The notes under the pieces were generated by a model, which saw only the letters and a list, made by a program, of their open reading frames with translations, was not told where the DNA came from and made no database searches. Source: Opitutales bacterium (lineage in GTDB: Bacteria; Verrucomicrobiota; Verrucomicrobiia; Opitutales; UBA2987). From it: a stretch of 26,031 nucleotides of DNA. The stretch spans positions 1 to 26,031 of the forward strand of contig JAJFLU010000057.1 in the NCBI GenBank assembly GCA_021772515.1, given 5' to 3'. The position numbers were made by a program, and so were the translations under genes. Shown here one piece after another: positions 1 through 19,679 of this stretch (positions are counted from its first letter, which is position 1; each line of letters starts with the position of its first letter).

Positions 1-294
1 GCCATGTTCGAGGGTAACGAGCTCAGATAATTCCTCAAAGTTGTCCTCCAACAGCATTCGATACCGGAAAAACAACCTTACTCGCTCCAAAGGAGGTGTT
101 TCGCTCCAGGCGGGAAAAGCATCCTTGGCCGATTGCACCGCGCGATTCACAATATCGGCATCGGCAAGCGGAGTTTCCGAAATCACAGCTCCCGTCGATG
201 GATTATAGACTGGCAAGGTTGGTAAATCTTTACATTCAACCCATTCGCCATCGATAAACATCGGGCAGGGTTTTAAATCAGTGGTTGTCATCAT
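1..294 (-). CDS. mmsA: Aldehyde dehydrogenase, CoA-acylating (methyl)malonate-semialdehyde dehydrogenase-like. Only the N-terminal 98 codons are present; the gene runs off the left edge.
   Basis: Absent from the ORF track because it is edge-truncated. My minus-strand translation from ATG 294 (second ATG at 291) reads MMTTTDLKPCPMFIDGEWVECKDLPTLPVYNPSTGAVISETPLADADIVNRAVQSAKDAFPAWSETPPLERVRLFFRYRMLLEDNFEELSELVTLEHG. The pattern IDGEWV..NP.TG...AF..WS..P..R..LF....LL....L......EHG is typical of the ALDH superfamily, MmsA branch. It lies 99 nt downstream of preA on the same strand. Confidence 0.6.
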   Translation of the reverse strand, partial: MMTTTDLKPCPMFIDGEWVECKDLPTLPVYNPSTGAVISETPLADADIVNRAVQSAKDAFPAWSETPPLERVRLFFRYRMLLEDNFEELSELVTLEHG

Positions 295-393
295 GTTTTT
301 GTTTAACAATTTGGTTGTTTGTAGTGAAAGGATGCGGGCTGCAGGATTTGTGGAAATGAAATGCAAATTGCCATCACCTGTAGCCTCCTAAGA

Positions 394-1707
394 TTAGGGG
401 TGGGGTGGGATCGAAGCCATTTCTCCTTTGGCAAGTCGTTCTTCATACTGTTTCCAGGTAAGAGGTTCTTTGCCGTTGGAAATGGGGGTCATGTTGATGC
501 AATCCTCAACCGGACAAACCAGTGAGCAAAGATTACAGCCCACGCAATCCTCTTCCCGAACCTGCGGAACCGGCTTACCGGGTAGTCGTCCAGGACCGAT
601 GCCATGACGCTCATCGGGTGAGATCAGGTCGATGCACTGGTGTGCGCCATCTTCACAGGCAATGTAACAAAGGTTGCAGCCGATGCACTTCTCATAGTCG
701 ATTCGGGCCACACGTTGATAGTGCAGATCGAGCGTATTCCAATTTTGCACACTGGCCACCGATTTTCCGCTCAGATCGTAAATCGTCTCGAAGCCCTTGG
801 AATCGAGGTAATCATTGAGCCCCTCGATCATATCCTCGACGATGCGGAAACCCCGGTGCATGATCGCGGTGCAGACTTGAAGACTCGTCGAGCCAAGCGC
901 GATAAATTCTGCCGCGTCCCGCCAGGTGCCGATTCCCCCGATACCCGAAATGGGTAGCCCGACATCCGGGTCGGCGGCGCAGCTTTGCACCATGTTCATG
1001 GCGATGGGCTTCACGGCGGGTCCGCAGTAGCCTCCGTGGGTGCTTTGACCGGCCACATACGGCTCGGGCACCAGTGTATCGAGATTTACATTGGTGATGC
1101 TGTTGATGGTGTTAATGAGGGAAATGGCATCTGCGCCCGCCCGCCGGGCAGCTCTTGCCGGAGCCGTAACATCGGTTATATTGGGCGTTAATTTGACGAT
1201 CACCGGAATGGTGGCGACTTCCATCACCCAGCCGGTTATTTCTTCCAACACCTTTGGCTGTTGGCCCACAGCAGAACCCATCCCGCGCTCGCACATGCCG
1301 TGGGGGCATCCGTAGTTAAGCTCGATTCCATCGGCCCCACTATCAGCGGAGCGTTTCACATATTCATGCCATTGCTCCCGCGTATCGACCATCAACGAGG
1401 CGATTACGGCGTGGTTGGGCCAGCGTTTTTTTACCTCGGCGATTTCGCGAAAATTGGTTTCCGGCGAGCGGTCCGTGATCAGCTCGATATTATTAAAACC
1501 AACTATCTGGGCCTGCCCCACATTGAGGGCGGAATACCGCGAAGCCACATTGACTATCGGCTCGCCGATGGTTTTCCAGACCACTCCTCCCCAACCGGCC
1601 TCAAAAGCGCGGTGAGCCTGATAGGCGGAGTTGGCAGGGGGCCCGGAAGCCACCCAAAAAGGATTCGGCGAGGAAATTCCAGCGAAGTTTATGGATAGGT
1701 CAGCCAT
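394..1707 (-). CDS. preA: NAD-dependent dihydropyrimidine dehydrogenase subunit PreA (DHOD-like TIM barrel plus 2x[4Fe-4S] ferredoxin domain)
   Basis: 437-aa ORF. It has a dihydroorotate-dehydrogenase-like N-terminus (NFAGISSPNPFWVASGPP, GADGIELNYGCPHG) and two C-terminal ferredoxin motifs (CIGCNLCYIACEDG, CVGCNLCSLVCP). AAGGAG lies about 11 nt upstream of ATG 1707. It sits directly downstream of preT. Confidence 0.9.
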   Translation of the reverse strand: MADLSINFAGISSPNPFWVASGPPANSAYQAHRAFEAGWGGVVWKTIGEPIVNVASRYSALNVGQAQIVGFNNIELITDRSPETNFREIAEVKKRWPNHAVIASLMVDTREQWHEYVKRSADSGADGIELNYGCPHGMCERGMGSAVGQQPKVLEEITGWVMEVATIPVIVKLTPNITDVTAPARAARRAGADAISLINTINSITNVNLDTLVPEPYVAGQSTHGGYCGPAVKPIAMNMVQSCAADPDVGLPISGIGGIGTWRDAAEFIALGSTSLQVCTAIMHRGFRIVEDMIEGLNDYLDSKGFETIYDLSGKSVASVQNWNTLDLHYQRVARIDYEKCIGCNLCYIACEDGAHQCIDLISPDERHGIGPGRLPGKPVPQVREEDCVGCNLCSLVCPVEDCINMTPISNGKEPLTWKQYEERLAKGEMASIPPHP

Positions 1708-1753
1708 TAGTTATTTTTCTCCTTGGGCTCAAAGAATGTATATCCCTTTTTAC

Positions 1754-3187
1754 TCACTGCTCGGTTACACGGATAGGGTTAATGAAACCGGAACCACTGG
1801 GAGCGCCATCGACTCCCAACCGGGATGGCTGCACAGGTGATTCCGCGCTGGCTCCAGAAAGATAAGAGTGGATGCCCCTGGCTCCCTTGATTCCCTCGGC
1901 CACCGCATTGACCACCTCACGGCCGCCATTAGCGCAATCACCACCGCAAAAAACCTTCTCTACACTGGTTTGTCCTGTTGCGGGATCAAGTTTTACGGTG
2001 CCATTGGCATTCATCTCCATATCGGGAAAAAGGGAGCTCAGCATCTCGACCTGTTTTTTGCTGCCCACTGCCTTTAAAACCATATCGCAGGGAAAGGAAA
2101 ATTCACTACCGGCAATTGCCTCGGGTCGGCCATTGGGTCCCGGTTGGGATTTTTGCAGGACAAGAGAGGAAACGCGGCCCTCATCATTGGCCACAACCTC
2201 CTTTAGCAGTGTGTGGAAAAGAAATTCGCCCCCATCGGTTTTGGCCAGATCGAACTCGAAATCGTAGGCCGGCATGTCCGTTTCGCCTCGGCGGTAGATT
2301 ATGGTGGTAATATTGGCCCCCAGCCGTTTGCTTTGGGTGAGTGCGTCGATGGCCGTATTGCCACAGCCGATTACGGCAACATTGTCTCCCACGGGAACTT
2401 CGTGCAGGGGATCGGAGTGAATTTGCGCTATAAAATCCAGCGCATCGATCACCTCCGGTAAATCCTCCCCTGGAACATTCAACTGGTGGCTTTTGCCAAG
2501 ACCGATACCGAGAAATACCGCGTCGAAATCTTCCTTCAATTGGCTCGTTGAAATATCTATGCCAACCTGCACCCCACAGCGAATTTCCACGCCGAGGCCC
2601 TTGATCATCTCGATTTCTCCGAGACTGATCGCCGGGGTCATTTTGTAATAGGCAATGCCATAGGTATTCAGGCCGCCGGGAAGCTCCTCCTTCTCAAAAA
2701 TCACTGCCTCGTGCCCCAATTGGGCAAGTTCCGCCGCGCAGCCCAAACCTGCGGGGCCACTCCCGATAATGGCAACCTTTTTGCCCGATTTCTCCGCCGG
2801 GGCTTCGAGCACATCGATATGGTTGCTGTAAACATGATCGGTGGCATACCTTTGCAGACGGCCAATTTTTACCGGATCACCCTCACGGGTTAGCACCACG
2901 CAGGCGCCCTCGCAGAGGACATTCGTGGGGCAAACCTGAGCGCAACTGGCCCCCAGAGGATTTGCCCTGAGAATTGTTCGGGCCGAGGCCACCGGGCTGC
3001 CCGAGGCTATTTTCTTGATAAAGGAAGGGATGTCGATGCCGGTGGGACATGCCATGATACAAGGGGCGTCAAAACAAAAGAGGCAGCGGTTCGCCTCAAT
3101 GATTGCCTCCTGTTTCGAAAAAGGAGGTTTGTAGCCCGTCATATTCTCCTCGGCTTGGGCGGGATTTAGTTTTATTCCGACGGCCAT
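1754..3187 (-). CDS. preT: Dihydropyrimidine dehydrogenase subunit PreT (glutamate-synthase small-subunit-like NAD(P)H oxidoreductase)
   Basis: 477-aa ORF. It has an N-terminal Cys-rich Fe-S region (CLFCFDAPCIMACP, CAQVCPTNVLCEGAC) and two dinucleotide-binding GxGxxG motifs (VAIIGSGPAGLGCA, VAVIGCGNTAID). An alternative start is ATG 3142 (MTGYKPP) just after GAGGAG. There are 46 nt between its stop and the preA start. Confidence 0.88.
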   Translation of the reverse strand: MAVGIKLNPAQAEENMTGYKPPFSKQEAIIEANRCLFCFDAPCIMACPTGIDIPSFIKKIASGSPVASARTILRANPLGASCAQVCPTNVLCEGACVVLTREGDPVKIGRLQRYATDHVYSNHIDVLEAPAEKSGKKVAIIGSGPAGLGCAAELAQLGHEAVIFEKEELPGGLNTYGIAYYKMTPAISLGEIEMIKGLGVEIRCGVQVGIDISTSQLKEDFDAVFLGIGLGKSHQLNVPGEDLPEVIDALDFIAQIHSDPLHEVPVGDNVAVIGCGNTAIDALTQSKRLGANITTIIYRRGETDMPAYDFEFDLAKTDGGEFLFHTLLKEVVANDEGRVSSLVLQKSQPGPNGRPEAIAGSEFSFPCDMVLKAVGSKKQVEMLSSLFPDMEMNANGTVKLDPATGQTSVEKVFCGGDCANGGREVVNAVAEGIKGARGIHSYLSGASAESPVQPSRLGVDGAPSGSGFINPIRVTEQ

Positions 3188-3334
3188 ATGCTTAAAATTT
3201 TTGTGGTCTTATCTTGTTTTGTTGCTATATAAAATGCCTTTACCCACTAAAATAGAATACGCTAGAACTGAAACAAATTATTTGCAAGAGCGGAGTTGAT
3301 TCCGCTTTTGCCCCAAAAAACAGGAGACTCAATT
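3188..3334. promoter_or_regulatory. Divergent intergenic region between preT (minus) and beta-ureidopropionase (plus); presumed bidirectional promoter/operator region
   Basis: Inferred only from the divergent start codons 147 nt apart. It contains a small palindrome AGCGGA-N6-TCCGCT (3289-3306). No consensus promoter is claimed. Confidence 0.35.
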
Positions 3335-4204
3335 ATGGCACGTATCGTACGGGGAGGTTTAATACAAACGACGGTTACACACGAGGGCGACTCACCCATC
3401 GATGAAATCAAGGCCGCGATGATCGAGAAACACATGCGGATGATCGAGGACGCGGCTGCCAAAGGCTGTCATGTCGTTTGTTTGCAGGAAATTTTCTACG
3501 GACCCTATTTCTGCTGTGAACAGGATATCCGGTGGTATGACAGCACGGAACAAATACCCGACGGCCCCACCACACAGTTGATGATGGAAACCGCACGGCG
3601 CCTCGGCATTGTAATAATTGTGCCGATTTATGAGGTTGAGCAGACCGGTGTTTACTACAACACCGCCTCTGTTATCGATGCCGATGGCGCCTACTTGGGC
3701 AAATACCGCAAAAACCACATTCCCCATGTGAATCCCGGTTTCTGGGAGAAGTTTTATTTCAAACCCGGTAACCTCGGTTATCCCGTTTTTGAAACGGCCG
3801 TCGGGAAGGTTGGAGTCTATATTTGCTATGATCGGCATTTCCCGGATGGCGCTCGCTGCCTTGGTTTGAACGGCGCCGAAATCGTATTCAACCCCTCCGC
3901 TACGGTGGCCGGATTGAGCGAATACCTCTGGAAACTGGAACAACCCGCCCATGCCGCCGCCAATGGATACTTTATTGGCGCCATAAACCGGGTGGGTTTC
4001 GAAAAACCGTGGAATATGGGCGAATTTTACGGCCAATCCTATTTCTGTGACCCCCGTGGCCAGATTTTTGCCATTGGCAGTCGGGATAAAGATGAAGTAG
4101 TCGTCGCGGACTTCGATTTGGATATGATTCGCGAGGTCCGCAACACCTGGCAATTTTACCGTGACCGCAGACCCGAAACCTACGGAGCTATTACTCAACT
4201 TTAG
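3335..4204 (+). CDS. Beta-ureidopropionase / N-carbamoyl-beta-alanine amidohydrolase (nitrilase superfamily C-N hydrolase)
   Basis: Sequence contexts of the nitrilase Glu-Lys-Cys triad are present (VCLQEIF, YRKNHIP, VYICYDRHFPD). I prefer ATG 3335 (MARIVRGGLIQ), which is preceded by AGGAG at 3322-3326, over the track start 3296. The specific product is inferred from its position next to preTA; N-carbamoylputrescine amidase is the main alternative. Confidence 0.78.
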   Translation: MARIVRGGLIQTTVTHEGDSPIDEIKAAMIEKHMRMIEDAAAKGCHVVCLQEIFYGPYFCCEQDIRWYDSTEQIPDGPTTQLMMETARRLGIVIIVPIYEVEQTGVYYNTASVIDADGAYLGKYRKNHIPHVNPGFWEKFYFKPGNLGYPVFETAVGKVGVYICYDRHFPDGARCLGLNGAEIVFNPSATVAGLSEYLWKLEQPAHAAANGYFIGAINRVGFEKPWNMGEFYGQSYFCDPRGQIFAIGSRDKDEVVVADFDLDMIREVRNTWQFYRDRRPETYGAITQL

Positions 4205-4229
4205 TTGGAGTTCTGCTTCAATTCCGAAG

Positions 4230-6044
4230 GTGAAAGCATATATCTTTGGGGTAATTTTTGGCCTGATGGCTCTGAGTGCCTTCGCGGAGCGCGCTCCCAT
4301 AGCCATTGATGGCGTGTTTGAAGATTGGGCCGATGTGCCTGTTGCGTATTCCGATGCAGAGGACCAAGTGGGCGCTGGACAAGTCGATTTCCTCAATCTT
4401 TGGCTGGCCGACGATGAGGATTTCCTTTTTTTCCGGCTCGAATCGGCTCAGGAGTTCGACTCCAGCGAAAACAATCAGGTAATCCTTTATATTGATGCCG
4501 ATGACAACCCTGCAACCGGTCTGGCAATCGGGGGCATCGGTGCCGAGGTGGAGTGGCGGCTGGGAAGTCGGCGCGGTACTGTTTACCTCACTGGAGGCGG
4601 CACGGTGTCATTCAACTACCGGGATATTCGTTTTCGGGGCGCTCCCACCGTGGATGCCCTGGAATTCGAGTTTGCCGTAGGAAGGAATGAGATTATCGCC
4701 GAGACAGGCTTTACCATGCGCATCCTGTGGCTCGATGAGGGCAGTGGCGATACCCTCCCCGACAGCGGCGAAACCCTCAGCTACACATTCGACGAGGGAA
4801 ATGCTTTACCTCCTCTCAATCTGCTCTCATTCGAGCGTGACAAGCTGGAAGATCTGCGCATTGCCACCTACAATGTTCTTTTCGACAATCTTTTTAATCC
4901 CAACGCGCAGCCGGGATTTAGGAGGCAGATTCAGGCGGTTGCCCCGGACATTATCAATTTCCAGGAAATTTTTAGCAACACCGCAGCCGATACGAGAAAT
5001 CTGATTTCCCAGTGGCTGCCTCTGCCCGAGGGCGAAAGTTGGCATGTGGACGGAGGATTTGTACCCAATAACGATACCATAACGGTCAGTCGCTACCCAA
5101 TATTGGATACTTGGCAGCTTTTTGGCTCAAATACCACGACTGGAAATCTGGCGGTTCTCCTCGATACGGAAGCTGCTCTCGAGCGTAAGCTACTCCTGAT
5201 TAACGCCCACCTGCCTTCCGGCTCCAACGAGACTGCCAGACAGCAGGAGATCGATTTGATTATGGCTTTCATCCGCGATGCCAAGGAGGAGGGTGGGGTA
5301 GTCACGGTGGAACCCGATACGCCGATAGTTGTTGTTGGGGATCTGAACCTCGTGGGCCGTTCCCAGCAATTGCAAACCCTCCTCGATGGTGATATTCAGG
5401 ATGAGACAACCTTTGGGTCAGATGTATTTCCCGATTGGGATGGAAGCAATCTGACCGACCTCATTTCCCGCCACACCGATGCCCCCATGGGCTACACGTG
5501 GCGCAATGACGGCGAATCATTGGGGTTTTGGCCCGGCCATCTGGATTTTGTCATTTATTCGGACAGTGTTCTCGAAACCGGCAATCACTTTATTGTTTAC
5601 ACTCCTGATATGTCTTCTGATCGGTTATCAACCTATGGCCTTTCAGGTGGTGATTCCAATGTATCCGACCACATGATGGTAGTTGGCGATTTTCGAATTC
5701 CCGCCGTGGATGTGTTGGGAGGAACGGATATTACCTCCGTTCCAGGTTGGCGTCGTTCACCTTGGTATGGGGACTATTATGTCGGATCATACCCCTGGAT
5801 TTTTCACAATGAGCACGGCTGGCAATGGATCTACCCCGGCAGCACCAGCGATATAGTTTACATATTTGACCACGGATTCGACCAATGGCTCTTTACCAAC
5901 GAATCGGTCTATCGCTTTATGTTTGTATTCGGGCCTCCCGGTGAAGAAGCCTGGATTTGGTCCTTCCCGGACAATACACCGGAACTACGCCATTTTTTCA
6001 ATTTCGGAACCGACCAACTCTTTTCAATTCCTCCCCAAAATTAG
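4230..6044 (+). CDS. Secreted multidomain endonuclease/exonuclease/phosphatase (EEP) family protein
   Basis: The track ORF 4161-6044 overlaps the upstream gene. An internal GTG at 4230 gives MKAYIFGVIFGLMALSAFA|ERAP, a classical Sec leader. The central EEP signatures are LRIATYNVLFDN, INFQEIF, VVVGDLNLVG and SDHMMVVGDF. The N-terminal ~200 aa (IDGVFEDWADVP...) and the aromatic-rich C-terminal ~100 aa are additional domains. The start codon is uncertain (4161 vs 4230). Confidence 0.75.
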   Translation: MKAYIFGVIFGLMALSAFAERAPIAIDGVFEDWADVPVAYSDAEDQVGAGQVDFLNLWLADDEDFLFFRLESAQEFDSSENNQVILYIDADDNPATGLAIGGIGAEVEWRLGSRRGTVYLTGGGTVSFNYRDIRFRGAPTVDALEFEFAVGRNEIIAETGFTMRILWLDEGSGDTLPDSGETLSYTFDEGNALPPLNLLSFERDKLEDLRIATYNVLFDNLFNPNAQPGFRRQIQAVAPDIINFQEIFSNTAADTRNLISQWLPLPEGESWHVDGGFVPNNDTITVSRYPILDTWQLFGSNTTTGNLAVLLDTEAALERKLLLINAHLPSGSNETARQQEIDLIMAFIRDAKEEGGVVTVEPDTPIVVVGDLNLVGRSQQLQTLLDGDIQDETTFGSDVFPDWDGSNLTDLISRHTDAPMGYTWRNDGESLGFWPGHLDFVIYSDSVLETGNHFIVYTPDMSSDRLSTYGLSGGDSNVSDHMMVVGDFRIPAVDVLGGTDITSVPGWRRSPWYGDYYVGSYPWIFHNEHGWQWIYPGSTSDIVYIFDHGFDQWLFTNESVYRFMFVFGPPGEEAWIWSFPDNTPELRHFFNFGTDQLFSIPPQN

Positions 6045-6922
6045 CCGGAATCACCGACCTCCTCAGAGTAGAGCTTGTAAAGAGCCTGAGTTCCGAAATC
6101 CTCGCCGCCACTTGAAGCAAGGATCTGATAGAGCTTGTGGGCGAGGGTCAGACCGGGCAGGTCCATCTCCAGTTCACGGGCTGACTCCAGCGCGATGCCC
6201 ATGTCTTTTATGAAATGCTTCACGTAGAAACCGGGTGCGAAATCCCCCTTGATAAAACGAGGCGCCAAATTGCTCAAGGACCAGCTTCCCGCGGCGCCGT
6301 TTTCAATGGTCGCGATAACCTCCATCGGGTCGAGATTTGCTTTTTTGGCATAGGCCATAGCTTCGCAAATGCCCATCATTCCGGCGGCGATCGCAATCTG
6401 GTTGCTCATTTTGGTGTGTTGTCCGGCGCCCGCAGGCCCAAGTAAACCAATATTTTTGCCCATCAATGCGAACAATGGCTTGACCCGTTTAAAAACGGCT
6501 TCATCGCCCCCCACCATGATCGAGAGACGCGCTTCACGAGCCCCGATATCGCCACCCGAAACCGGAGCGTCCAGAGCGCCAATACCTTTTTCCGCCGCTT
6601 TTTCACAAATTTGGGCGGCTAGCTTTGGACTCGACGTGGTCATATCGACTACTACTGAACCGGCCCGAGCGTTTGCCAAAATACCATCTTCGCCCAAAAA
6701 AACCGCTTCAACATCCGCGGGAAAACCGACTATGGTTATGATAATGTCCGAGTTTGCAGCCACTTCTCCCGGCGAATCCCGCCAGATTGCGCCTTTTTCG
6801 ACCAAAGAATCGGCGCGTGACTTTGTCCGGTTAAAAACATTGAGCGAATAGCCGGCATTGAGCAAGTGCCCGGCCATGCTGCGCCCCATGACGCCCGTTC
6901 CAATAAATCCGATGGTTTCCAT
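6041..6922 (-). CDS. NAD(P)-dependent beta-hydroxyacid dehydrogenase (3-hydroxyisobutyrate / tartronate-semialdehyde / threonate dehydrogenase family)
   Basis: It starts METIGFIGTGVMGRSMAGHL (GxGxxG at the N-terminus) and has the family Lys context GAGQHTKMSNQ. ATG 6922 overlaps the TAA of the upstream DUF62 gene by 1 nt (TAATG). The track start 6952 would lie inside the upstream gene. Its stop overlaps the convergent EEP stop (6041-6044). Confidence 0.8.
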   Translation of the reverse strand: METIGFIGTGVMGRSMAGHLLNAGYSLNVFNRTKSRADSLVEKGAIWRDSPGEVAANSDIIITIVGFPADVEAVFLGEDGILANARAGSVVVDMTTSSPKLAAQICEKAAEKGIGALDAPVSGGDIGAREARLSIMVGGDEAVFKRVKPLFALMGKNIGLLGPAGAGQHTKMSNQIAIAAGMMGICEAMAYAKKANLDPMEVIATIENGAAGSWSLSNLAPRFIKGDFAPGFYVKHFIKDMGIALESARELEMDLPGLTLAHKLYQILASSGGEDFGTQALYKLYSEEVGDSG

Positions 6923-7911
6923 TATTTTGCCTTTCGTATTTCGATGGTCCAACCGGAGCCCGATTCGATGCCGTATCGTTGGGAGAAATTTCCCAAATTG
7001 ATGGATAGTTCCATATAGTAATTGGAGTTTGAATACAACAGAGGTTCGCCCTTGGAGACATCACCAAACGTTTTTACATAGGGCAGATTTTCCGAGTATA
7101 GAATCTCGCCGTTATGTTTAACCGTAATATCAGCGTGATCCTCCAACCGGACTAGACCGAGTTTTTCAAAGGTTTCAGTCGAAATATTTGTCCCCACATT
7201 TCCAAAGGAATCCACCGAGGTGAGGGTTCCTGAAATAACTCCTTCACTTATGGTGGCCTCCGTAATTTTTTCCAATTGAACGACCTTTGGTTCAAGCAGC
7301 GGCCCCACTTGCTCGTAGGTGATAACTCCAGAGGCCAATCGCGCTCCGGTGAAGGAATAAACATCGCGACCATGAAAGGTGTGGGCTTCTCCAGTTCCCT
7401 TGCGCCGGTTGACCGATTCGTCGATTTCCCTGACCGCCGTAATTCCCAATTCTTGAGCCACCATATCGAGACTTCCATTGTCGGGGCTGACAAAGTAGTG
7501 ACCGCTTTTGGTTTTCAAAACCACTGATCGCCGCACCGTGCCCACACCCGGATCGACGACCGAGACAAAGACCGTCCCACTCGGCCAAACGAGAGCGTTC
7601 TCAAGCAGACTCCGGGCGGCCTCGCGGGTGTCGAATTGTGTGATATTATGGCGAATATCGAAAATTTGGAGATCCGTATCGACGCTATGGGCGACCCCGC
7701 GCATGATGGACGCATAACTATCAGTCACTCCGAAATCGGATTGAAAAACGACCGCTGATTTTCCATTGAGAGGGCTGGCATTCATCGTTACAAAAAGTAA
7801 GAAAACATAGAGAGCGGCCATTAATTGCCAACGCTTTTGCCGGGTGGCGTAGGCTGTTGATATTTTTTGCCCATAATTCAAATTCTTCATGCGCAAAATG
7901 CTATGCGACAC
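6922..7911 (-). CDS. DUF62 family protein (SAM hydroxide adenosyltransferase / chlorinase-fluorinase fold) with N-terminal signal peptide or anchor; paralog 1
   Basis: DUF62 motifs are present: VVFQSDFGVTDSYASIMRGV, DIRHNI, VSVVDPGVGTVRR, HTFHGRDVYSF, and DSFGNVGTNI in the C-terminal domain. The N-terminus reads RQKRWQLMAALYVFLLFVTMNASPLNG before the catalytic domain. Track start 7911 is GTG; ATG 7890 (MKNLNYG) is an alternative. Confidence 0.8.
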   Translation of the reverse strand: MSHSILRMKNLNYGQKISTAYATRQKRWQLMAALYVFLLFVTMNASPLNGKSAVVFQSDFGVTDSYASIMRGVAHSVDTDLQIFDIRHNITQFDTREAARSLLENALVWPSGTVFVSVVDPGVGTVRRSVVLKTKSGHYFVSPDNGSLDMVAQELGITAVREIDESVNRRKGTGEAHTFHGRDVYSFTGARLASGVITYEQVGPLLEPKVVQLEKITEATISEGVISGTLTSVDSFGNVGTNISTETFEKLGLVRLEDHADITVKHNGEILYSENLPYVKTFGDVSKGEPLLYSNSNYYMELSINLGNFSQRYGIESGSGWTIEIRKAK

Positions 7912-7934
7912 TTCGGAGTCAATGCAAGCATTGC

Positions 7935-9449
7935 CTATTCTCTAACATTTTCCTCTGAGATACTACCGAGATTTTTCCGAAGATCTCGCAGCGAATAATC
8001 ATCGCCCACATTTCCCGGAAAAACGATAAAGGGAAGTCCCGGGTGTCTGGCTTCAGAGCCCATTTCCCAAACGGGAACCCCCGGCAAAATTTGCCCTGAC
8101 ACCATGGCCCGTTTCACACCCATTGCCTTGGTCGCTACCTCGCTCGATGTGATGCCTCCCTTGGCGACCAGATACCGGGGGCGAGTTTGGATTTGCCGAA
8201 CAGTTTCCACCAAACCTTCCGAAATTCGCCGCCCGATGGACAGGCTTTTCTCAGCATTTTTATCCGCAACCAACTCTCTGCTCGTGTAAATTACCACATC
8301 TTGGCCCAAGTCAAGAGATTGATCAGCCGCTACGGCCACCTGCGAAATCACCTCAGCATGGTTGCCTTTATCGATCAGTTCTCGGGCGGGTAGTTTAAGT
8401 GAAACCACACCCTTCTCTTGAATGAGGTTTTCTACCTGGATTGTGGTTTGGGAGACGTAGGAACCTACCACAAACAGTCCCCCTTTATCACCTGAAAAAA
8501 CTAAATCTGCGGTTGCGAGAAGGCTTCTCGGCGAGATTCCTGCTCGCGCGGCTACAAAGGAGGCTCCCGTACGGTAAATGAACCTTTTCCCAACCGCCTC
8601 CGCCTTCAACAAACCCAACATAAAGCATTCCAGGTCTCTGCGGTTAGCGGCGTTAATTATGACGACCGTTCCGCCCTCAATTTCACTCAATCGTCGCGCC
8701 ACCACATCGGGTCCGCCAATGCGAATATCCCCCAGCGAGATGGATGCCGTTTGTTCGGATTTTATTCTTCCTTTCGACTTTTCCTCCACCCATTCGAGTA
8801 AATTGGAAGCCCTGTAGCCGAAGGAGTGATCGCGAGCGAACTCCGATTGACCCGCCGGGAGGAGCCGATCCCCCTCAACCAGATAATGGACATCCCCGAT
8901 TGTCAGCCGACCGCTATCGCCGAAATAGGGACAGAGCAAACAACCGTCAAATCCACCGTCGAGAGCTTCTGTGAGCGCGTCAACCTCGCCGGGAAAATGT
9001 CCTCGCAAAGTGGAATCGCTCCGGCTGACAACGGCGATTTCGCGGTTTGTCAACTTGGCTGCTTCGCGGAGACGGTTCCCGATTTCGGCATTGATCTTAC
9101 AGGCCTGTCGAAGCGGAAAAGCTCGGGAGTTGGTGAGAAGATAAAAGGCGGGCAGGTCGTTGCGGAGTTCCTCGCAAAGAGCCTCCAATGGCCATTCCGT
9201 TAATACGGGAATGTCATGGACGGTTTGTGTGCCGGTGGGATCGTCGTCGATGGCGACAATCTTTTTTCCCGCTAATCTGAGAGCGGCTTCGATTTCGGAT
9301 GATGGATCGTGGGGCCATCCGGGCGGCAGATTTCGAAGCGCATCCGCAAGCGACGTAGGGTATTCTTTCACCGCAACGAAAATCGGTTCATTGGGCGGTG
9401 AAACCGAGGTCGATTGTCCATGAAGCCCCCGTGACAGCCCCCGCCGCAT
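7935..9449 (-). CDS. Four-carbon acid-sugar kinase family protein (DUF1537; OtnK/DtnK-like)
   Basis: It carries the family-typical N-domain motif IVAIDDDPTGTQTVHD, LTNSRA, and the C-terminal nucleotide-binding domain (VAKGGITSSEVA). The start is uncertain. ATG 9449 overlaps the upstream SDR by 62 nt, whereas GTG 9371 (VKEYPTS) lies 16 nt after the SDR stop. Confidence 0.8.
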   Translation of the reverse strand: MRRGLSRGLHGQSTSVSPPNEPIFVAVKEYPTSLADALRNLPPGWPHDPSSEIEAALRLAGKKIVAIDDDPTGTQTVHDIPVLTEWPLEALCEELRNDLPAFYLLTNSRAFPLRQACKINAEIGNRLREAAKLTNREIAVVSRSDSTLRGHFPGEVDALTEALDGGFDGCLLCPYFGDSGRLTIGDVHYLVEGDRLLPAGQSEFARDHSFGYRASNLLEWVEEKSKGRIKSEQTASISLGDIRIGGPDVVARRLSEIEGGTVVIINAANRRDLECFMLGLLKAEAVGKRFIYRTGASFVAARAGISPRSLLATADLVFSGDKGGLFVVGSYVSQTTIQVENLIQEKGVVSLKLPARELIDKGNHAEVISQVAVAADQSLDLGQDVVIYTSRELVADKNAEKSLSIGRRISEGLVETVRQIQTRPRYLVAKGGITSSEVATKAMGVKRAMVSGQILPGVPVWEMGSEARHPGLPFIVFPGNVGDDYSLRDLRKNLGSISEENVRE

Positions 9450-10146
9450 CGGAGCAAAGATACTGGACTAGCCCCGCCACTTCCTCCGGCTGAATCATGC
9501 GTTTGATAGCAGTCGATTTCAGGAAAATCTTTGCCGGAACCTCTTCCTTGGGGATATTGTGGAGAGCGGCCTGATCTTCCAATTGACCGGAAATCAGCGG
9601 AGTATCCACATAGGCGGGGCAAAGGGCATTTGCGGTGATACCATGCTCTCCGCCCTCCAACGCCGCTGTCCGGGTGAGGCCGAGCAGACCCGATTTGGCC
9701 GTCACGTAGGCCGCCTTGAATGGTGAGGCCACCAAGCCCTGGATCGAGGCGATATTTACGATGCGGCCCCAACCCGATTTTTTCATCGAAGGCCAGACAT
9801 ATTTGGTCAGCAAAAATGGAGCGGTCAGCATGACCTCCAGCATCGTATCCCAGGTTTTTTCGGGAAAGTTCTCGATCAAGTCCATATGTTGAAGCCCGGC
9901 GTTGTTGACCAAAATATCTACCCGCCCAAAGCGTTCGAGAGTGGCTTGCACAAGGCGTTGGCACTGCCCCCTCTCCACCAAGTCGGTAAGGTGAAACCAT
10001 GCGCCAAGTTCCTCGGCTACCCGACGGCCCCTATTTTCGTCGAGATCGGCCAAAACAACCTGTATGCCTTCCTCGACCAGCTTTTTGGCCGTCGCCTGGC
10101 CTATTCCACCGGCTCCTCCCGTAATGATGGCGACTTTAGATTCCAC
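9388..10146 (-). CDS. SDR family oxidoreductase, 3-hydroxybutyrate-dehydrogenase-like
   Basis: Contains TGGAGGIG (cofactor motif), NNAG, a catalytic Ser (NIASIQG) and YVTAK (YxxxK). The sequence NNAGLQHMDLIENFPEKTWD resembles the BdhA-type subfamily. GTG start at 10146, 11 nt after the stop of DUF62 paralog 2. Confidence 0.85.
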   Translation of the reverse strand: MESKVAIITGGAGGIGQATAKKLVEEGIQVVLADLDENRGRRVAEELGAWFHLTDLVERGQCQRLVQATLERFGRVDILVNNAGLQHMDLIENFPEKTWDTMLEVMLTAPFLLTKYVWPSMKKSGWGRIVNIASIQGLVASPFKAAYVTAKSGLLGLTRTAALEGGEHGITANALCPAYVDTPLISGQLEDQAALHNIPKEEVPAKIFLKSTAIKRMIQPEEVAGLVQYLCSDAAGAVTGASWTIDLGFTAQ

Positions 10147-10157
10147 TTCTAAAGCAT

Positions 10158-11075
10158 TCAGGACTTTTTCCGTATTTCCATAGTCCAGTCCTTGCCGTGA
10201 TGGATATCGTGGGTGGCGGCAAAGTTCCCTTGGTTGATCGCCATCGCAAGGAAGTAGCTGCTGTTGATAAATAACAGAGGCTCGCCCAGCGGGACCTCCC
10301 CGAAAGTTTTCGAAAAGGGAACATCCTGCTGCCAGACAATCTCGCCCTTGTGTCGAAAGGTGACCTCGACGATCTCGCCCTCTTTGATACCGAGTTTGTC
10401 GAAAGTTTCCATATCGATCCGGCTGGCCGTATTGCCCAATCTGCCTTGGGCCGTATAAACCATCCCGAAAGCAGATTTACCCTCGATGTAAGGCTTTACG
10501 TTATCCAACTGCACCACTTTGGCTTCGAGCAATGGCCCCACGCCCTCGAAATCGATCACCCCGGCGGCCAACCGCGCTCCCGTGAAGGAGTAAACATCAC
10601 GTCCGTGGAAGGTATGGGAACGCTCTGAGCCCTTGCGGCGGTTGACGGATTCATCGATTTCGCGAACCGCCTCGATTCCCAATGACTTAGCCACCAATGA
10701 CAAGGTGCCATTGTCGGGGCTAACAAAATAATGGCCGCTTTTGGTTTTCAGAACCACCGATTTGCGAACCGTTCCCACACCGGGATCGACCACGGATACA
10801 AACACTGTGCCGGATGGCCAATAGGGCGCCGTATATTCGAAACTGCGCGCTGCCTGATCGATATCGTAGAGGTTAATTAGCGGGCGGACATGAAAAATAT
10901 CCAGATCTTTACTCACGCCATAGGCGATTCCCTCCATGACCGCCCCCCCGAAATCGGCCTGGATGACAACAGCATTTTTACCCTGCGAAACGCCTCCAGT
11001 GAAGGCCCATGCAAGTAGAGCGGTTAAGAGGAATACTTGGTTATGCCAAAGGAATTGAGTGGTCGTTTTTTTCAT
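10158..11075 (-). CDS. DUF62 family protein (SAM hydroxide adenosyltransferase / chlorinase-fluorinase fold) with N-terminal signal peptide; divergent paralog 2
   Basis: The leader reads MKKTTTQFLWHNQVFLLTALLAWAFTGGVSQG|KNAVVIQADFGG. The central block WPSGTVFVSVVDPGVGTVRK...HTFHGRDVYSFTGARLA is 89/105 identical to paralog 1 by my manual alignment. The N-terminal loop and C-terminal domain are diverged. Confidence 0.8.
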   Translation of the reverse strand: MKKTTTQFLWHNQVFLLTALLAWAFTGGVSQGKNAVVIQADFGGAVMEGIAYGVSKDLDIFHVRPLINLYDIDQAARSFEYTAPYWPSGTVFVSVVDPGVGTVRKSVVLKTKSGHYFVSPDNGTLSLVAKSLGIEAVREIDESVNRRKGSERSHTFHGRDVYSFTGARLAAGVIDFEGVGPLLEAKVVQLDNVKPYIEGKSAFGMVYTAQGRLGNTASRIDMETFDKLGIKEGEIVEVTFRHKGEIVWQQDVPFSKTFGEVPLGEPLLFINSSYFLAMAINQGNFAATHDIHHGKDWTMEIRKKS

Positions 11076-11235
11076 AGGATGTATTATTTAACTGTATGGT
11101 TTGATTATCATCATTATGGCTGAAAAGAGGTTCTGAAAGGCAACAAAAAAGTTCGGCACGATAAAAAACTGGATTTGTTGAAATGCGCAAAGCTGTTTGT
11201 TTGACGCAGGAATTTAGTTTTTCTACTGTAGGGGA
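11076..11235. promoter_or_regulatory. Divergent intergenic region between the DUF62 operon (minus) and the P450-nucleosidase pair (plus)
   Basis: A 160-nt AT-rich gap between divergent start codons. Promoter function is inferred from geometry only. Confidence 0.35.
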
Positions 11236-12600
11236 ATGGAAGAGGCAATGCCATTTGAAGAATTGAAAACCCTCGATGATATTCCTGTTTACGAAACTGC
11301 TCCCGACGGGCGGCGCAGAGAGGGGAGGTTTTCTCTGGAGGATCTCCATTTCGCCAAAGATCCCATCAGATACCACGTGAACGCTTACCGACGGCACGGG
11401 GCAATTTATAAATGCTGGTTTCGCAATCAGGAGTGGGTGGCGATCGGCGGGCACGATGCGAATGATTTTGCCTGGCGGCAGCCCGATATCTGGAGTTACC
11501 GGGAGGCCATGGCCGGTTTCGGCAAACAACTCGGTTTTCGTCATGTAACCACTCTCGATGGCGTTCCCCATAGGTTGAAAAGGCGTTCCCTTAAACCAGG
11601 TTTCGGTAACTCGATCTTTCGGCATTTGCCCGCCATGAGCAAACTGGCGGCCACGGAGATCAACCGAAAAATCGACAAAAATATCGACCTGCATCAATTT
11701 TGTATGGAAACCATCATCCGACTTTCAGCGGGCACACTATTGAGGGCGGAAATCAGCGATGAAATGGTCCGTGAAATGGCGAAATTCGAGGAGATGTTCA
11801 TGCACGGCCTCAATGTCGGCGAATATGGGGATGATTATTTTGCGGGCGAAGATTATCGAAATACGAAAGAAAATGTATTCGGGTTTTTGCAGGAATTGAT
11901 CGAAAACCGTGATGAAAAGGGAAGCCCGGAAGATAGTTTCGCGGCCATGTTTGATGAACGCCCGGAACAGGCTGGCCCCTACGATATCCATGAAAAGCTG
12001 GATGACGCCTACCTGCTCTTAATCGCGGGAGCGGAAAATACTGCCCGGCTGATATGCTGGTGCCTGCAATACATCGCCGAGAGTCCCGATTGGCTCGATG
12101 AATTGCGTGAGGAATTGAGTGAGGGGTCATTGGATAATTTTCAAGAAGGCATGGCCCGTTTCCCGAAACTCAAGAATACCATCATGGAGGTGGAACGACT
12201 CCAGCCGGGAGCCTATTTTCATGTCCGAACAGCGGCTGAACCGATCGATTTTCAAGGCTGCCAAATCCCGAAGGGGTCAGAGATACTGCATATTCAGGGG
12301 CTCTGCCATTTTCTTGAGGAGATTTACGAGGACCCCTTTGAATTTAAGCCGCAACGATGGGATGGGCGGCAATATCCCCGCAAAGCCCATGGCACTTTTG
12401 GCGGCGGCACCCATCTATGTCTCGGCATAAATTTGGCAAAAATCCACACAACATTAATTTTAGCCCACCTTCTTAAAAATTGTAGTGTAACCCTCGATTT
12501 CAAACCCGATTTCCACCTATATCTGAATCCGGGTGGCGGCTTTCGACGATCCCCACTTCCCGCTCAGTTTATTCCCCTCGATCCCGGAAATGGCCAGTGA
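11236..12600 (+). CDS. Cytochrome P450
   Basis: Contains the heme-thiolate loop FGGGTHLCLG, a K-helix ExxR (EVER) and an I-helix-like LLIAGAENTA. 454 aa. An alternative ATG lies at 11248. Confidence 0.9.
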   Translation: MEEAMPFEELKTLDDIPVYETAPDGRRREGRFSLEDLHFAKDPIRYHVNAYRRHGAIYKCWFRNQEWVAIGGHDANDFAWRQPDIWSYREAMAGFGKQLGFRHVTTLDGVPHRLKRRSLKPGFGNSIFRHLPAMSKLAATEINRKIDKNIDLHQFCMETIIRLSAGTLLRAEISDEMVREMAKFEEMFMHGLNVGEYGDDYFAGEDYRNTKENVFGFLQELIENRDEKGSPEDSFAAMFDERPEQAGPYDIHEKLDDAYLLLIAGAENTARLICWCLQYIAESPDWLDELREELSEGSLDNFQEGMARFPKLKNTIMEVERLQPGAYFHVRTAAEPIDFQGCQIPKGSEILHIQGLCHFLEEIYEDPFEFKPQRWDGRQYPRKAHGTFGGGTHLCLGINLAKIHTTLILAHLLKNCSVTLDFKPDFHLYLNPGGGFRRSPLPAQFIPLDPGNGQ

Positions 12601-12626
12601 TCGTTTCAACCCGAATCCTAATAACA

Positions 12627-13553
12627 ATGTTAAAAACATACAGCCTGATCGCATTTTTACTCTCGGTTTTTTGTTTGAGTATGCTCGTCGGTTCCGATTC
12701 GGAGCCGAAAGAAAAAAATCCCTCACGTATCGCCATTGTGGCGGCATTTCAAGGAGAGATGGATGCTATCCGTGAGGAAATAGAGGGGGAAGAAATCACC
12801 GATGAAATTTCGATAAACGGGGTTAAATTTATTTTGGGGACGGCTTATGGGAAAAAAGTCGTCTTTTTCACGACTAATGTAAGCACCGTAAACGCGGCCA
12901 TGAACACGCAGCTTCTCCTCGACAGGTTTTCGGTTAAAATGCTCCTTTTTTCGGGTATCGCGGGGGGAGTCAATTGGGATTTGTCCAAGGGAGATGTAGC
13001 CATACCCGCCAAGTGGCATTATGTTTTGGAGGGAGCGGTTTTTAATGAAAAAGAAGACGGCAGTGGAGAATACGATGTCATTGAAGCTCCCTGGGCTGAT
13101 TTTAAGTATGGAAATTTCGGAATGATTCATCCGCTTGATGTGGCGGTGATTCGCAGCGGACTTGAAAAACCCGAGAGAAAGGCATTTTTCGAGGCAGATG
13201 CCGATCTATTGAAGTTATCCGCCAAAATTGCCGCCGATATTAACCTGCGTAATGCAAAGGGCGAAAAGGCGGTTATCAAAGTGGGCGGTGTGGGGGGCAC
13301 GAGCTCCGCTTTTTTGGATAATGCCAAATTTCGCGAATTTATCCACCAAGCATGGGGAACCGATTGCGTCGATATGGAATCGACACCCATCGCCCATGTT
13401 TGCTGGGCAAATGAAGTGCCTTTCCTCATTATTCGATCTCTCAGTGACCTGGCTGGCGGGCAAAAAGGGCTTAACGAAATGAAGGAACATGCAGAGGGCG
13501 CCAAGCATAACGCCGCCAAGATGTTGAATGATATTCTCAAATCGCTCGATTAA
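12627..13553 (+). CDS. PNP_UDP_1 family nucleosidase, 5'-methylthioadenosine/S-adenosylhomocysteine nucleosidase (MtnN)-like, with N-terminal signal peptide
   Basis: ATG 12627 gives MLKTYSLIAFLLSVFCLSMLVGS (hydrophobic leader). The track start 12597 is a GTG overlapping the P450 stop. MtnN-like motifs are IAIVAAFQGEMDAI, FSGIAGGV, VDMESTPIAHV and IRSLSDLAG. It starts 26 nt after the P450 stop. Confidence 0.75.
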   Translation: MLKTYSLIAFLLSVFCLSMLVGSDSEPKEKNPSRIAIVAAFQGEMDAIREEIEGEEITDEISINGVKFILGTAYGKKVVFFTTNVSTVNAAMNTQLLLDRFSVKMLLFSGIAGGVNWDLSKGDVAIPAKWHYVLEGAVFNEKEDGSGEYDVIEAPWADFKYGNFGMIHPLDVAVIRSGLEKPERKAFFEADADLLKLSAKIAADINLRNAKGEKAVIKVGGVGGTSSAFLDNAKFREFIHQAWGTDCVDMESTPIAHVCWANEVPFLIIRSLSDLAGGQKGLNEMKEHAEGAKHNAAKMLNDILKSLD

Positions 13554-18486: not shown

Positions 18487-18500
18487 TCTTGGTTAACCCT

Positions 18501-19679
18501 ATGAAAGCGTCCCTGCTTGTTATCGATAGCTTTGGTATCGGCGCTCTGCCGGATGCTGGAAATTATGGGGATGAAGGCTCCAATACCGCTTTGCATATCT
18601 GCGAGAATGTCCCCGAAATCCACCTGCCCAATTTGACTCGCCTTGGATTGGGCAATTGCTCGGAAATTTTGGGCAATCCCCTTCCTGGAATCCCTTCTCA
18701 GGCGACTCCGTTGGCCTCATGGGGTGTGATGAAAGAGCAGTCCCCCGGTAAGGACACGACGACGGGCCATTGGGAATTGGCAGGCATTATTCTCGATAAA
18801 CCCTTCCCGACTTTCCCTATAATTGCCCCTTCGTTTCCCGAGGAAATTATACAACCGTTCCGTCAGACATTCAGGGTGGGCGTCCTTGGAAATGAATCGG
18901 CCTCCGGGGTAGATATCATCGCCCGGTTGGGAGAGGAGCATGTGCAAACCGGCAACCCAATCGTTTACACCTCGGCGGATTCAGTTTTGCAGGTGGCAGC
19001 TCATGAAGAGGTTATCCCTCTGACGCAGCTTTATGAGATGTGCATGGTACTTCGACGTCTCTGCGACCCTTTTCAGGTGGGCAGGGTAATTGCTCGTCCC
19101 TTTCTGGGCGAACCTGGAAATTTTGAACGCACTGCCAACCGCAAGGATTTTAGCCTGCCCCTGCCGCATAATACCATCTTGGATGTTATGGGTGAACATG
19201 GTGTCAAAACCATCGCCGTGGGCAAAATTGGCGACATCTTCAATGAAAAAGGAATCGATGAAAGTTACCACGATAAAGGGAACACCGCCTGTCTCGAGCG
19301 AACGGTGAATCTTTTGCGGGACAGGGCAGGGGAGTCCTTTTTCATGTTCGTAAATTATGTGGATACCGATATGTTCTACGGCCACCGCCGGGATGTGAGC
19401 GGATATTACGAAGCCCTCGTCGAGATCGACCAGTATTTGGGCCAAATGATCGATTATATGAATACCGGAGACCTCCTTATGGTAACCGCTGACCACGGTT
19501 GCGACCCCACCTTCGAGGGCACCGACCATACCCGCGAATATGTGCCCATACTCGCTTATCGAAAAGGGTGGCCGGGCGGAAACATCGGCATCAGGGATAG
19601 TTTTGCCGATGCCGCCCAAAGTGTGGCAGCCTGTTTCGGAACTTCTCCACTTCCCAATGGGGCAAGTTTTTTCCTATAA
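18501..19679 (+). CDS. deoB: Phosphopentomutase
   Basis: Starts MKASLLVIDSFGIGALPDAGNYGDEGSNTALHI and contains ...TADHGCDPT..., typical of DeoB (alkaline-phosphatase superfamily metal sites). I prefer ATG 18501 over the TTG at 18489. Confidence 0.9.
   Translation: MKASLLVIDSFGIGALPDAGNYGDEGSNTALHICENVPEIHLPNLTRLGLGNCSEILGNPLPGIPSQATPLASWGVMKEQSPGKDTTTGHWELAGIILDKPFPTFPIIAPSFPEEIIQPFRQTFRVGVLGNESASGVDIIARLGEEHVQTGNPIVYTSADSVLQVAAHEEVIPLTQLYEMCMVLRRLCDPFQVGRVIARPFLGEPGNFERTANRKDFSLPLPHNTILDVMGEHGVKTIAVGKIGDIFNEKGIDESYHDKGNTACLERTVNLLRDRAGESFFMFVNYVDTDMFYGHRRDVSGYYEALVEIDQYLGQMIDYMNTGDLLMVTADHGCDPTFEGTDHTREYVPILAYRKGWPGGNIGIRDSFADAAQSVAACFGTSPLPNGASFFL

Follow-up and report, generated by a model that had tools for sequence, protein, structure and literature searches.

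DUF62 proteins are known above all as S-adenosylmethionine (SAM) hydroxide adenosyltransferases, or (R)-SAM hydrolases, such as PH0463, SaDUF62 and StDUF62. The physiological role of DUF62 SAM hydrolases has been uncertain ever since they were discovered, and the current proposal is the cytoplasmic removal of the inactive (R)-SAM epimer. A DUF62-fold enzyme also stands near a PNP-superfamily enzyme and a short-chain dehydrogenase/reductase (SDR) in the SalL-SalT-SalN-SalM and FlA-FlB pathways. Kinases of the DUF1537 family (SBD_N + NBD_C), with SDR and HIBADH-type dehydrogenases at their flanks, belong to pathways that combine OtnK, DtnK or DenK with LtnD or DenD, OtnI, and OtnC or PdxA2, to the OiaK pathway and to the route Ltn3D-3OtnK-3OtnC. 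Exported 5'-methylthioadenosine/S-adenosylhomocysteine (MTA/SAH) nucleosidases serve purine salvage, as does Bgp of Borrelia. Features of these systems, and of reductive pyrimidine catabolism, come together around a string of five minus-strand genes (6041..11075) in an Opitutales bacterium. The stretch analysed, called the window below, is the 26,031-nt contig JAJFLU010000057.1 of assembly GCA_021772515.1, and for this genome the analysis was confined to it. The preliminary description of this DNA had stated that the five-gene composition matches no described pathway, which still holds, most simply because the genes do not make up a pathway. We consider it probable, at roughly 0.6, that the string is an evolutionary mosaic of three modules and not one pathway.

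The string begins with a DUF62 gene, DUF62-2 (10158..11075; SAM_HAT_N 4.4e-37 and SAM_HAT_C 3.8e-14), followed by the SDR gene (9388..10146; adh_short 4.1e-55), the DUF1537 kinase gene (7935..9371, with a longer open reading frame (ORF) reaching 9449; SBD_N 2e-47 and NBD_C 6.3e-37), a further DUF62 gene, DUF62-1 (6922..7911, likely start ATG 7890; SAM_HAT_N 1.7e-44 and SAM_HAT_C 4.9e-21), and the gene of a HIBADH-type beta-hydroxyacid dehydrogenase (6041..6922; NAD_binding_2 2.3e-54 and NAD_binding_11 1.2e-33). Protein families were assigned with Pfam at gathering scores and with NCBIfam models at curated cut-offs, and structures were matched by HMMER alignment to the PDB. The Pfam domains of all five proteins lie far above gathering scores, and the ORF list and Pfam agree with the coordinates, strand and gene identities proposed earlier. 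The junctions had been read correctly as well, with two refinements of start sites. DUF62-2 and the SDR gene are separated by 11 nt, and the SDR/kinase junction depends on the kinase start, GTG 9371 leaving a gap of 16 nt and ATG 9449 giving an overlap of 62 nt; the kinase read from 9371 (478 aa) matches the N-termini and lengths (465-476 aa) of 19 homologues. The spacer between the kinase gene and DUF62-1 measures 23 nt to GTG 7911 and 44 nt to ATG 7890, where the public gene call (322 aa) begins, and DUF62-1 and the HIBADH gene share a TAATG stop/start overlap (-1 nt).

The five genes are a tightly packed and, from this spacing, probably co-transcribed string. Promoter and terminator scans of 5800-11400 found nothing above shuffled controls, including one weak sigma-70-like match (11111-11083) in the 160-nt divergent intergenic region (11076..11235) between DUF62-2 and a cytochrome P450 gene, where promoters are presumed to lie. 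The earlier claim of one transcription unit stands as far as same-strand compact packing and the lack of any terminator above controls are concerned. Because promoter and terminator matches do not exceed those controls, it is the spacing that points to a single transcript.

Evidence for the mosaic comes from orthologous loci in sister lineages. The comparison covered loci L088, L171 and L172, loci L173-L175 (L173 being from assembly GCA_021772535.1) and the window; the relatives are roughly equidistant from the window, with flanking genes about 80-92% identical to its own. L088, L171 and L172 are 84-96% identical to one another in most proteins and 78-81% in an endonuclease/exonuclease/phosphatase (EEP)-family protein. 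Their gene order is a nucleosidase-P450 pair, a divergent DUF62-2-SDR unit in which the SDR gene directly follows DUF62-2 (18-nt spacer), a conserved spacer of 110-150 nt, and then HIBADH, EEP, CN_hydrolase, PreT, PreA and MMSDH genes. In L173-L175, the order is HIBADH-EEP-CN_hydrolase-PreT-PreA-MMSDH-dihydropyrimidinase; upstream of it lies an unrelated FG-GAP gene, and DUF62, SDR, P450 and nucleosidase genes are all missing. A tandem DUF62 pair with a PNP_UDP_1 gene is found at another locus (L001) of the same assembly as L173, and the first DUF62 of that pair is the closest relative of DUF62-1 (60% identity).

Among the orthologous loci compared, the kinase gene and DUF62-1 stand between SDR and HIBADH in the window only. 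They take the place of the SDR-HIBADH spacer and the conserved HIBADH leader of the relatives, neither of which is present in the window. In related genomes, two to four of the five genes are missing from the orthologous position, and remnants of the kinase gene or DUF62-1 were sought in L088 and none were found. The kinase gene and DUF62-1 were either inserted in the window lineage or lost elsewhere; in both cases, the five genes do not form an obligatory set. By synteny, DUF62-2-SDR with the P450-nucleosidase pair makes a second module, which is movable, beside the HIBADH-pyrimidine cluster, and the kinase gene with DUF62-1 makes a third, added in the window only. The SDR-HIBADH junction is a plastic spot, as shown by L088, where the spacer (11700-13300) is enlarged by an IS1-like transposase inside a minus-strand PDDEXK_3 gene. 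The spacer upstream of HIBADH (L171 11702-11810, L172 2428-2577, L088 13190-13297) reads GGGCTTGCC...GCTTAGTTTTT, followed by an ACCGGRAAG...TTTCCGG hairpin. This hairpin with its U-run was considered as a terminator in the relatives and rejected, its fold z-scores of -1.5 to +0.1 being not significant against shuffled controls.

The HIBADH gene adjoins EEP-CN_hydrolase-PreT-PreA-MMSDH in the window, L088, L171, L172 and L173-L175 (85-89% identity), and the EEP gene lies beside it in all relatives compared. Since it keeps this company in all lineages, it is a constant companion of the reductive pyrimidine-degradation cluster. In the window, the genes of that cluster occupy 1..4204 on both strands: the N-terminus of MMSDH (1-294, minus strand), recognized by tblastn with the L173 MMSDH (83% identity), and, from Pfam, PreA (394-1707, minus), PreT (1754-3187, minus) and a CN_hydrolase/beta-ureidopropionase-like gene (3296-4204, plus). 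A predicted exported EEP-family protein (4161..6044, plus; Exo_endo_phos, hydrophobic N-terminus) is encoded convergently with HIBADH. In L173, MMSDH scores 660 against an NCBIfam cut-off of 448 and dihydropyrimidinase 528 against 393. The position of HIBADH at the edge of a PreT/PreA, dihydropyrimidinase, beta-ureidopropionase and MMSDH set resembles reductive pyrimidine catabolism with an MmsA/MmsB-type pair. Unlike MmsB-type enzymes, however, it stays under the TIGR01692 cut-off (195.9 against 291.6), its best models being tartronate semialdehyde reductases (268 against 341), and an exported EEP gene lies inside the cluster. The protein is below every equivalog cut-off, and its closest structure is 3w6u. 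On these scores, it is classed as a generic beta-hydroxyacid dehydrogenase whose gene forms the boundary of the pyrimidine-catabolism cluster.

A side observation concerns the CN_hydrolase gene. At three Mucilaginibacter loci (L040, L062 and L064), an exported DUF62 gene lies 2-5 kb from genes of an agmatine deiminase (PAD_porph) and a CN_hydrolase 41% identical to that of the window. Given this gene company, the window CN_hydrolase could be an N-carbamoylputrescine amidase rather than a beta-ureidopropionase.

Both DUF62 proteins exceed the gathering scores of PF01887 and PF20257. Their best NCBIfam matches are (R)-SAM hydrolase models (NF058624/NF053629), whose equivalog cut-offs they miss by a wide margin (138.4 and 104 bits against 350; 107 and 79 against 470), and with the fluorinase model TIGR04507 they reach 97.8 and 62.8 bits, where 400 is required. 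An alignment of 20 family sequences shows little or no variation in the motifs VVDPGVG, GTxR and FHGRD; the Asp, Arg and His of these three motifs, respectively, make up a triad in both proteins, at positions that match the hydrolase 2zbu in HMMER alignments to solved structures. At these motifs, SalL has VYPETG, T and WYGKD in contrast to VDPGVG, R (of GTxR) and FHGRD in the window proteins; SalL Tyr70 aligns with Val, and the halide-pocket residues are not present. The His-Arg-Asp triad is strictly conserved in DUF62 hydrolases, absent from both halogenases, and activates water (PMC10491745). We class both proteins, from these residues, as hydrolase-type and not halogenase-type. As triad and motifs match 2zbu and not SalL, the product expected from SAM is adenosine, not 5'-halo-adenosine. 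In their PF01887 + PF20257 fold, Asp-Arg-His motifs and expected C5' displacement by water to adenosine, they are like PH0463, SaDUF62 and StDUF62. Members of the family assemble as trimers.

The two DUF62 proteins are 53% identical to each other and are old paralogues. Recent duplication or gene conversion was considered and dismissed, as only one 148-nt stretch reaches 74% DNA identity and each gene has closer relatives elsewhere. DUF62-1 is of what we call type A1; the proteins nearest to it (55-60% identity) are encoded by the leading genes of tandem DUF62 pairs found at other places in related genomes. One such pair (L089 10001-15095) is broken by insertion sequence (IS) elements, with the second copy split into three ORFs. 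DUF62-2 is of type B, in which five residues are deleted right behind the DFG motif and the conserved His of the D-x-T-H motif is lost; the triad is kept, and this deletion and loss are a further difference from PH0463, SaDUF62 and StDUF62. The deleted loop presumably corresponds to the one that contacts the methionine moiety of SAM in the fluorinase structure. Orthologues of DUF62-2 in L088, L171 and L172 are 80-82% identical, and type-B relatives occur in Opitutales, Woeseiaceae and other Gammaproteobacteria; besides the window, type-B loci are L003 (10939-11889), L009, L016, L036, L073, L077 and L081.

A charged stretch followed by a hydrophobic core is found at the N-terminus of DUF62-1, DUF62-2, the nucleosidase and the EEP-family protein. 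That of DUF62-2 is signal-peptide-like (MKKTTTQFLWHNQVFLLTALLAWAFTGGVSQG). DUF62-1 is about 45 aa longer at this end than the solved cytoplasmic homologues, the extra part being hydrophobic, and its residue 48 aligns to residue 3 of 2zbu. Among the closest DUF62 homologues with a recognizable DFG motif, 112 of 119 show the n-h-c pattern of a signal peptide, most ending in an AxA-like motif shortly before the domain; homologues were counted when the N-terminus was extended by 15 residues or more and an 11-residue window in it was strongly hydrophobic. We take these proteins to form an exported DUF62 subfamily with Sec-type signal peptides. The extensions of about 35-45 aa set the window proteins apart from PH0463, SaDUF62 and StDUF62 and imply action outside the cytoplasm; if they are exported, a cytoplasmic SAM-repair role does not apply to them. 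Neither DUF62 hydrolases nor hydrolytic nucleosidases depend on a cofactor, and both can act in the periplasm, whereas a DUF1537 kinase and dehydrogenases need ATP or NAD(P) and hence are cytoplasmic. With DUF62 proteins and nucleosidase predicted to be exported and kinase and dehydrogenases cytoplasmic, any linear route through all of them would have to cross the inner membrane.

The genomic company of exported DUF62 genes was assessed in 84 loci, 80 of them from different species in a genome-collection scan with the family alignment and 4 known earlier. Each was screened by tblastn with all window proteins over up to 10 kb around the DUF62 gene, and neighbouring ORFs were clustered by BLAST and then assigned by Pfam. 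The commonest partners are TonB-dependent receptors (BLAST clusters of at least 20 and at least 5 ORFs) and Xan_ur_permease proteins (at least 5 and at least 5 loci). TonB-dependent receptors are also the top immediate same-strand neighbour, accounting for 15 of 90 ORFs from 74 DUF62 loci among the matches listed. Exported NUP-family genes (PF06516, nucleoside-phosphorylase-like) are present in at least six loci (L007, L019, L023, L032, L036 and L073), and exported PNP_UDP_1 or NUP-type proteins recur beside exported DUF62 genes in several phyla, which bears out the functional link between DUF62 and nucleosidase suggested earlier. In Verrucomicrobiota, an operon of TonB-dependent receptor, exported DUF62 and pbuX-like permease is found in L007 (5326-12363), L008 (88-5017) and L032 (2588-8439), with a divergent exported NUP-family gene in L007 and L032 and an AzgA-like permease also in L007. 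That these partners are not housekeeping genes is another difference from PH0463, SaDUF62 and StDUF62. The presence of receptors, nucleobase permeases and exported nucleosidase or NUP proteins beside exported DUF62 genes points to periplasmic scavenging of adenosyl compounds.

Our literature search on exported or periplasmic DUF62 proteins found nothing relevant; the genomic company of exported DUF62 genes is not discussed in the DUF62 literature searched, and a scavenging role was not found described there. In Helicobacter pylori (L021, L022, L025, L026, L030 and L031), a signal-peptide-bearing DUF62 gene is flanked by outer-membrane-protein genes, and the literature mentions it only as the neighbour of a prophage insertion site. 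Rfam searches gave no match in the window, and one tRNA and no riboswitch in eight loci with TonB-dependent receptor and DUF62 genes. As no SAM or cobalamin riboswitch occurs in the window or in these eight loci, the substrate cannot be named in that way.

The divergent nucleosidase gene of the preliminary description is real (12597..13553, plus strand; PNP_UDP_1 1.2e-36) and encodes an MTA/SAH-nucleosidase-like, predicted exported protein that exceeds the cut-off of TIGR01704 (84.1 against 73.8). It is preceded by a cytochrome P450 gene (11236..12600, plus; p450 4.9e-40), with which it overlaps by 4 nt, and the pair is kept in L171 and, with the P450 broken into two ORFs, in L088. The named proteins nearest to the nucleosidase come from Opitutales and Coraliomargarita, and by themselves would make the organism probably an Opitutae-like member of the Verrucomicrobiota. 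A more distant homologue sits with adenosine deaminase and xanthine dehydrogenase genes, which fits a role in purine salvage or catabolism. In the window, nucleoside and nucleobase genes also lie at 18489..23287 (plus; Pfam and NCBIfam): deoB, deoA, a purine nucleoside phosphorylase gene and an NCS2 (pbuX-like) permease gene. A signal-peptide-bearing PNP_UDP_1 nucleosidase near salvage genes is reminiscent of Borrelia Bgp-type and NUP-family (PF06516) proteins. It differs from Bgp-type nucleosidases in its setting, with translational coupling to a cytochrome P450 and an exported DUF62 gene in divergent orientation.

The SDR scores 302 against the NCBIfam 3-hydroxybutyrate dehydrogenase model NF009093 (cut-off 258) and 303.8, just below the cut-off of 307.05, against TIGR01963. 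Its top PDB matches are all D-3-hydroxybutyrate dehydrogenases, 3v2h and 6zzq being the best. Judged by these matches, it is 3-hydroxybutyrate-dehydrogenase-like, cytoplasmic and NAD(P)-dependent, and not the aldose-oxidizing enzyme proposed earlier or a lactol oxidase. The carboxylate-binding residues of 3-hydroxybutyrate dehydrogenase, which we take to be Gln94, His144, Lys152 and Gln196 (P. fragi numbering), can be followed in the alignment: the SDR shows counterparts of both Gln residues and of the Lys, and the His144 position is Gln in the SDR and Asn in 6zzq, on this assumed assignment of residue roles. In the motif S-I-Q-G-L-V-A-S...Y, a Ser lies at catalytic Ser + 7, as mapped by Ser-Tyr spacing only, where Ltn3D has Arg143. 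In Ltn3D, an SDR that acts as L-threonate 3-dehydrogenase, Arg143 is essential and binds the C1 carboxylate (PMC12994016).

The kinase scores 56.4 against 450 (DtnK), 55.6 against 350 (OtnK) and 22.2 against 700 (OiaK), and its sole PDB match is 5dmh at 33 bits. Every invariant column of 19 family members is also present in it, and on this basis it is placed as an orphan member of an uncharacterized DUF1537 sugar-acid kinase clade. With SBD_N and NBD_C domains and SDR and HIBADH flanks, the locus is like the DUF1537 pathways. It differs from them in that the kinase reaches at most 56 bits to equivalogs, that the flanking dehydrogenases predate it at the locus, and that its clade is usually paired with a ketose-bisphosphate-aldolase-family gene. 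As the preliminary description had noted, no OtnI, OtnC, PdxA2 or RuBisCO-like partner is found among the annotated ORFs of the 26-kb window; an aldolase, isomerase or decarboxylase partner is likewise lacking there.

Loci of the kinase family were collected in a metagenome scan with the kinase alignment, which gave 80 loci, together with 3 genome contexts (83 loci, 717 kb). Their commonest neighbour is a ketose-bisphosphate-aldolase-family gene, present in at least 12 loci and above the TIGR00167 cut-off; further neighbours encode GntR regulators, MFS or ABC transporters, and xylose-isomerase-like, GFO/IDH/MocA and transketolase proteins. The gene that most often comes after the DUF1537 gene of this clade is the aldolase-family gene, as in L097 (912-3168) and 11 other kinase-family loci. 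This suggests a kinase-aldolase pair for a keto- or acid-sugar in the clade. A distant SDR adjoins the kinase in at least seven loci, and a HIBADH-type gene stands beside it in at least three, both 27-37% identical to the window counterparts. Recurrence of the DUF62-DUF1537-SDR-HIBADH synteny, on which the preliminary description had made its pathway depend, was seen neither around DUF62 genes (a DUF1537 or HIBADH homologue within 10 kb by tblastn in 0 of 84 loci) nor around kinase genes (a DUF62 gene in 0 of 83), in both cases among the matches listed.

Under the mosaic reading, the first module would consist of exported DUF62-1 and DUF62-2; their substrates would be scavenged S-adenosyl-sulfonium compounds, either SAM or a related one, cleaved in the periplasm into adenosine and an amino-acid moiety. 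The exported MTA/SAH-type nucleosidase and the exported EEP phosphoesterase would degrade adenosyl compounds, nucleosides or nucleotides further, and the bases, taken up by NCS2-type permeases, would supply the deoB/deoA/PNP and PreT/PreA genes of the window. In the second module, HIBADH would interconvert (methyl)malonate semialdehyde with 3-hydroxyisobutyrate or 3-hydroxypropionate, alongside MMSDH. In the third, the SDR would act on short 3-hydroxy- or 3-oxo-carboxylates, and the kinase would belong to a clade that presumably works with a ketose-bisphosphate-aldolase-type partner in sugar-acid catabolism. The kinase gene and DUF62-1 would have been inserted, or retained only in the window lineage, between SDR and HIBADH, and separate units would thereby have been fused.

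Several points weigh against this reading. Gaps of no more than 44 nt and a TAATG overlap usually go with functional coupling, and co-expression of all five genes is likely. The DUF62-2-SDR adjacency beside the P450-nucleosidase pair is kept in two of the three lineages, and there may be a functional link between exported DUF62 and SDR. Partners missing here (aldolase, OtnC, transporters) could lie elsewhere in the genome, as the data are one 26-kb contig, and rare recurrences may have been missed among the matches that the two collection scans listed. Export of the DUF62 proteins and the nucleosidase is predicted from sequence features only, and the type-B deletion may change or abolish SAM binding. 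Further, we know of no substrate for any exported DUF62 protein, and free SAM is to our knowledge not an established environmental nutrient.

The pathway proposed in the preliminary description would lead from DUF62 to a 5'-substituted adenosine, and on through nucleosidase to a pentose, SDR to an aldonate, kinase to a phospho-aldonate and HIBADH to a keto-acid, as a new route in the manner of Sal or Fl. The tight packing of the five genes with a divergent nucleosidase, the recurrence of DUF62 genes with nucleosidase-type genes and a composition like that of no described pathway all speak for it, and the likeness to the SalL and FlA pathways in having a DUF62-fold enzyme near a PNP-superfamily enzyme and an SDR is real. 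However, the window DUF62 proteins have the hydrolase triad and not the halogenase residues (98 and 63 bits against 400 in the fluorinase model), the nucleosidase is of the hydrolytic MTAN type and predicted to be exported like them, and the later steps need ATP or NAD(P), with neither a sugar transporter nor a lactonase within the string. The SDR is of the 3-hydroxybutyrate-dehydrogenase type, and, unlike the salinosporamide 5-chlororibose route, the window holds no polyketide synthase, nonribosomal peptide synthetase, aldolase or transaldolase genes. With HIBADH tied to the pyrimidine cluster in all relatives, no recurrence in the 84 and 83 loci listed, and kinase and DUF62-1 at none of the orthologous loci compared, such a route is highly improbable. 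Reading the DUF62 proteins as ordinary cytoplasmic (R)-SAM hydrolases for SAM repair, with N-terminal extensions that are mis-called starts or cytoplasm-facing membrane tethers, would agree with their best NCBIfam matches and the conserved triad. We regard this as highly improbable, given scores of 138 and 104 against 350, the lack of any in-frame start between hydrophobic segment and DFG motif that would leave an intact domain, positive charges ahead of the hydrophobic core with the n-h-c pattern in 112 of 119 homologues, and outer-membrane receptors, exported NUP proteins and permeases as recurrent neighbours.

Another possibility is that SDR and DUF1537 kinase, possibly with HIBADH, form a sugar-acid or 3-hydroxyacid branch of their own, in which the SDR yields a 3-oxo acid that is then phosphorylated, the DUF62 genes being merely interleaved. 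A route of this kind, from an SDR-type L-threonate 3-dehydrogenase via a DUF1537 kinase to a decarboxylase, has been described as Ltn3D-3OtnK-3OtnC (PMC12994016). Several kinase-family loci (L139, L112 and L145) also have an SDR directly upstream of the kinase, and one of the three with a HIBADH-type gene (L151) has a bona fide L-threonate dehydrogenase. Yet the window SDR was at the locus before the kinase, as L088, L171 and L172 have it without one, and it resembles 3-hydroxybutyrate dehydrogenases, with Ser in place of Ltn3D Arg143 by the Ser/Tyr spacing count. The low identity (27-37%) of the SDR and HIBADH proteins beside other kinases, and the lack of an OtnC, aldolase or PdxA2 partner in the window, make such a branch rather unlikely. 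More favourably, although still tentatively, exported DUF62 proteins of at least two subtypes may be the core of a TonB-dependent system for periplasmic adenosyl-sulfonium scavenging that is fused here to an SDR-kinase-HIBADH branch consuming a released moiety. Uptake would be by a dedicated TonB-dependent receptor, followed by hydrolysis to adenosine and methionine (or another leaving group), removal of the base by an exported nucleosidase or NUP protein and import of the base by NCS2/AzgA permeases.

The remainder of the window contains genes of other kinds. Downstream of the nucleosidase gene, an HAE3/MMPL-type RND transporter fused to a C-terminal cyclic-nucleotide-binding domain (13636-16419, minus strand) is followed by a LolA-like lipoprotein-carrier gene (16497-17399, minus). 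A hopanoid-type link, considered because of weak matches of the nucleosidase and the RND transporter to HpnG and HpnN, was rejected, since scores are far below cut-offs and HpnH is lacking. The contig end (23280-26031) is gene-poor and free of tRNA genes, and its GC content drops to 0.39 at 25-26 kb; in it lie a ParB-like ORF of 190 aa without Pfam match and a truncated AAA_14 ATPase gene (24190-24675).

The mosaic reading of this locus carries a caution for the interpretation of gene clusters, as even five very closely packed genes can stem from unrelated modules that were fused recently; here, three sister lineages sufficed to dissect it. For the DUF62 family, the finding concerns a large and phylogenetically broad signal-peptide-bearing subfamily which, if exported, cannot serve the removal of (R)-SAM in the cytoplasm. 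These exported DUF62 proteins would point to a second function of the family, namely the acquisition of purine, and possibly of methionine or sulfur, from extracellular adenosyl compounds.

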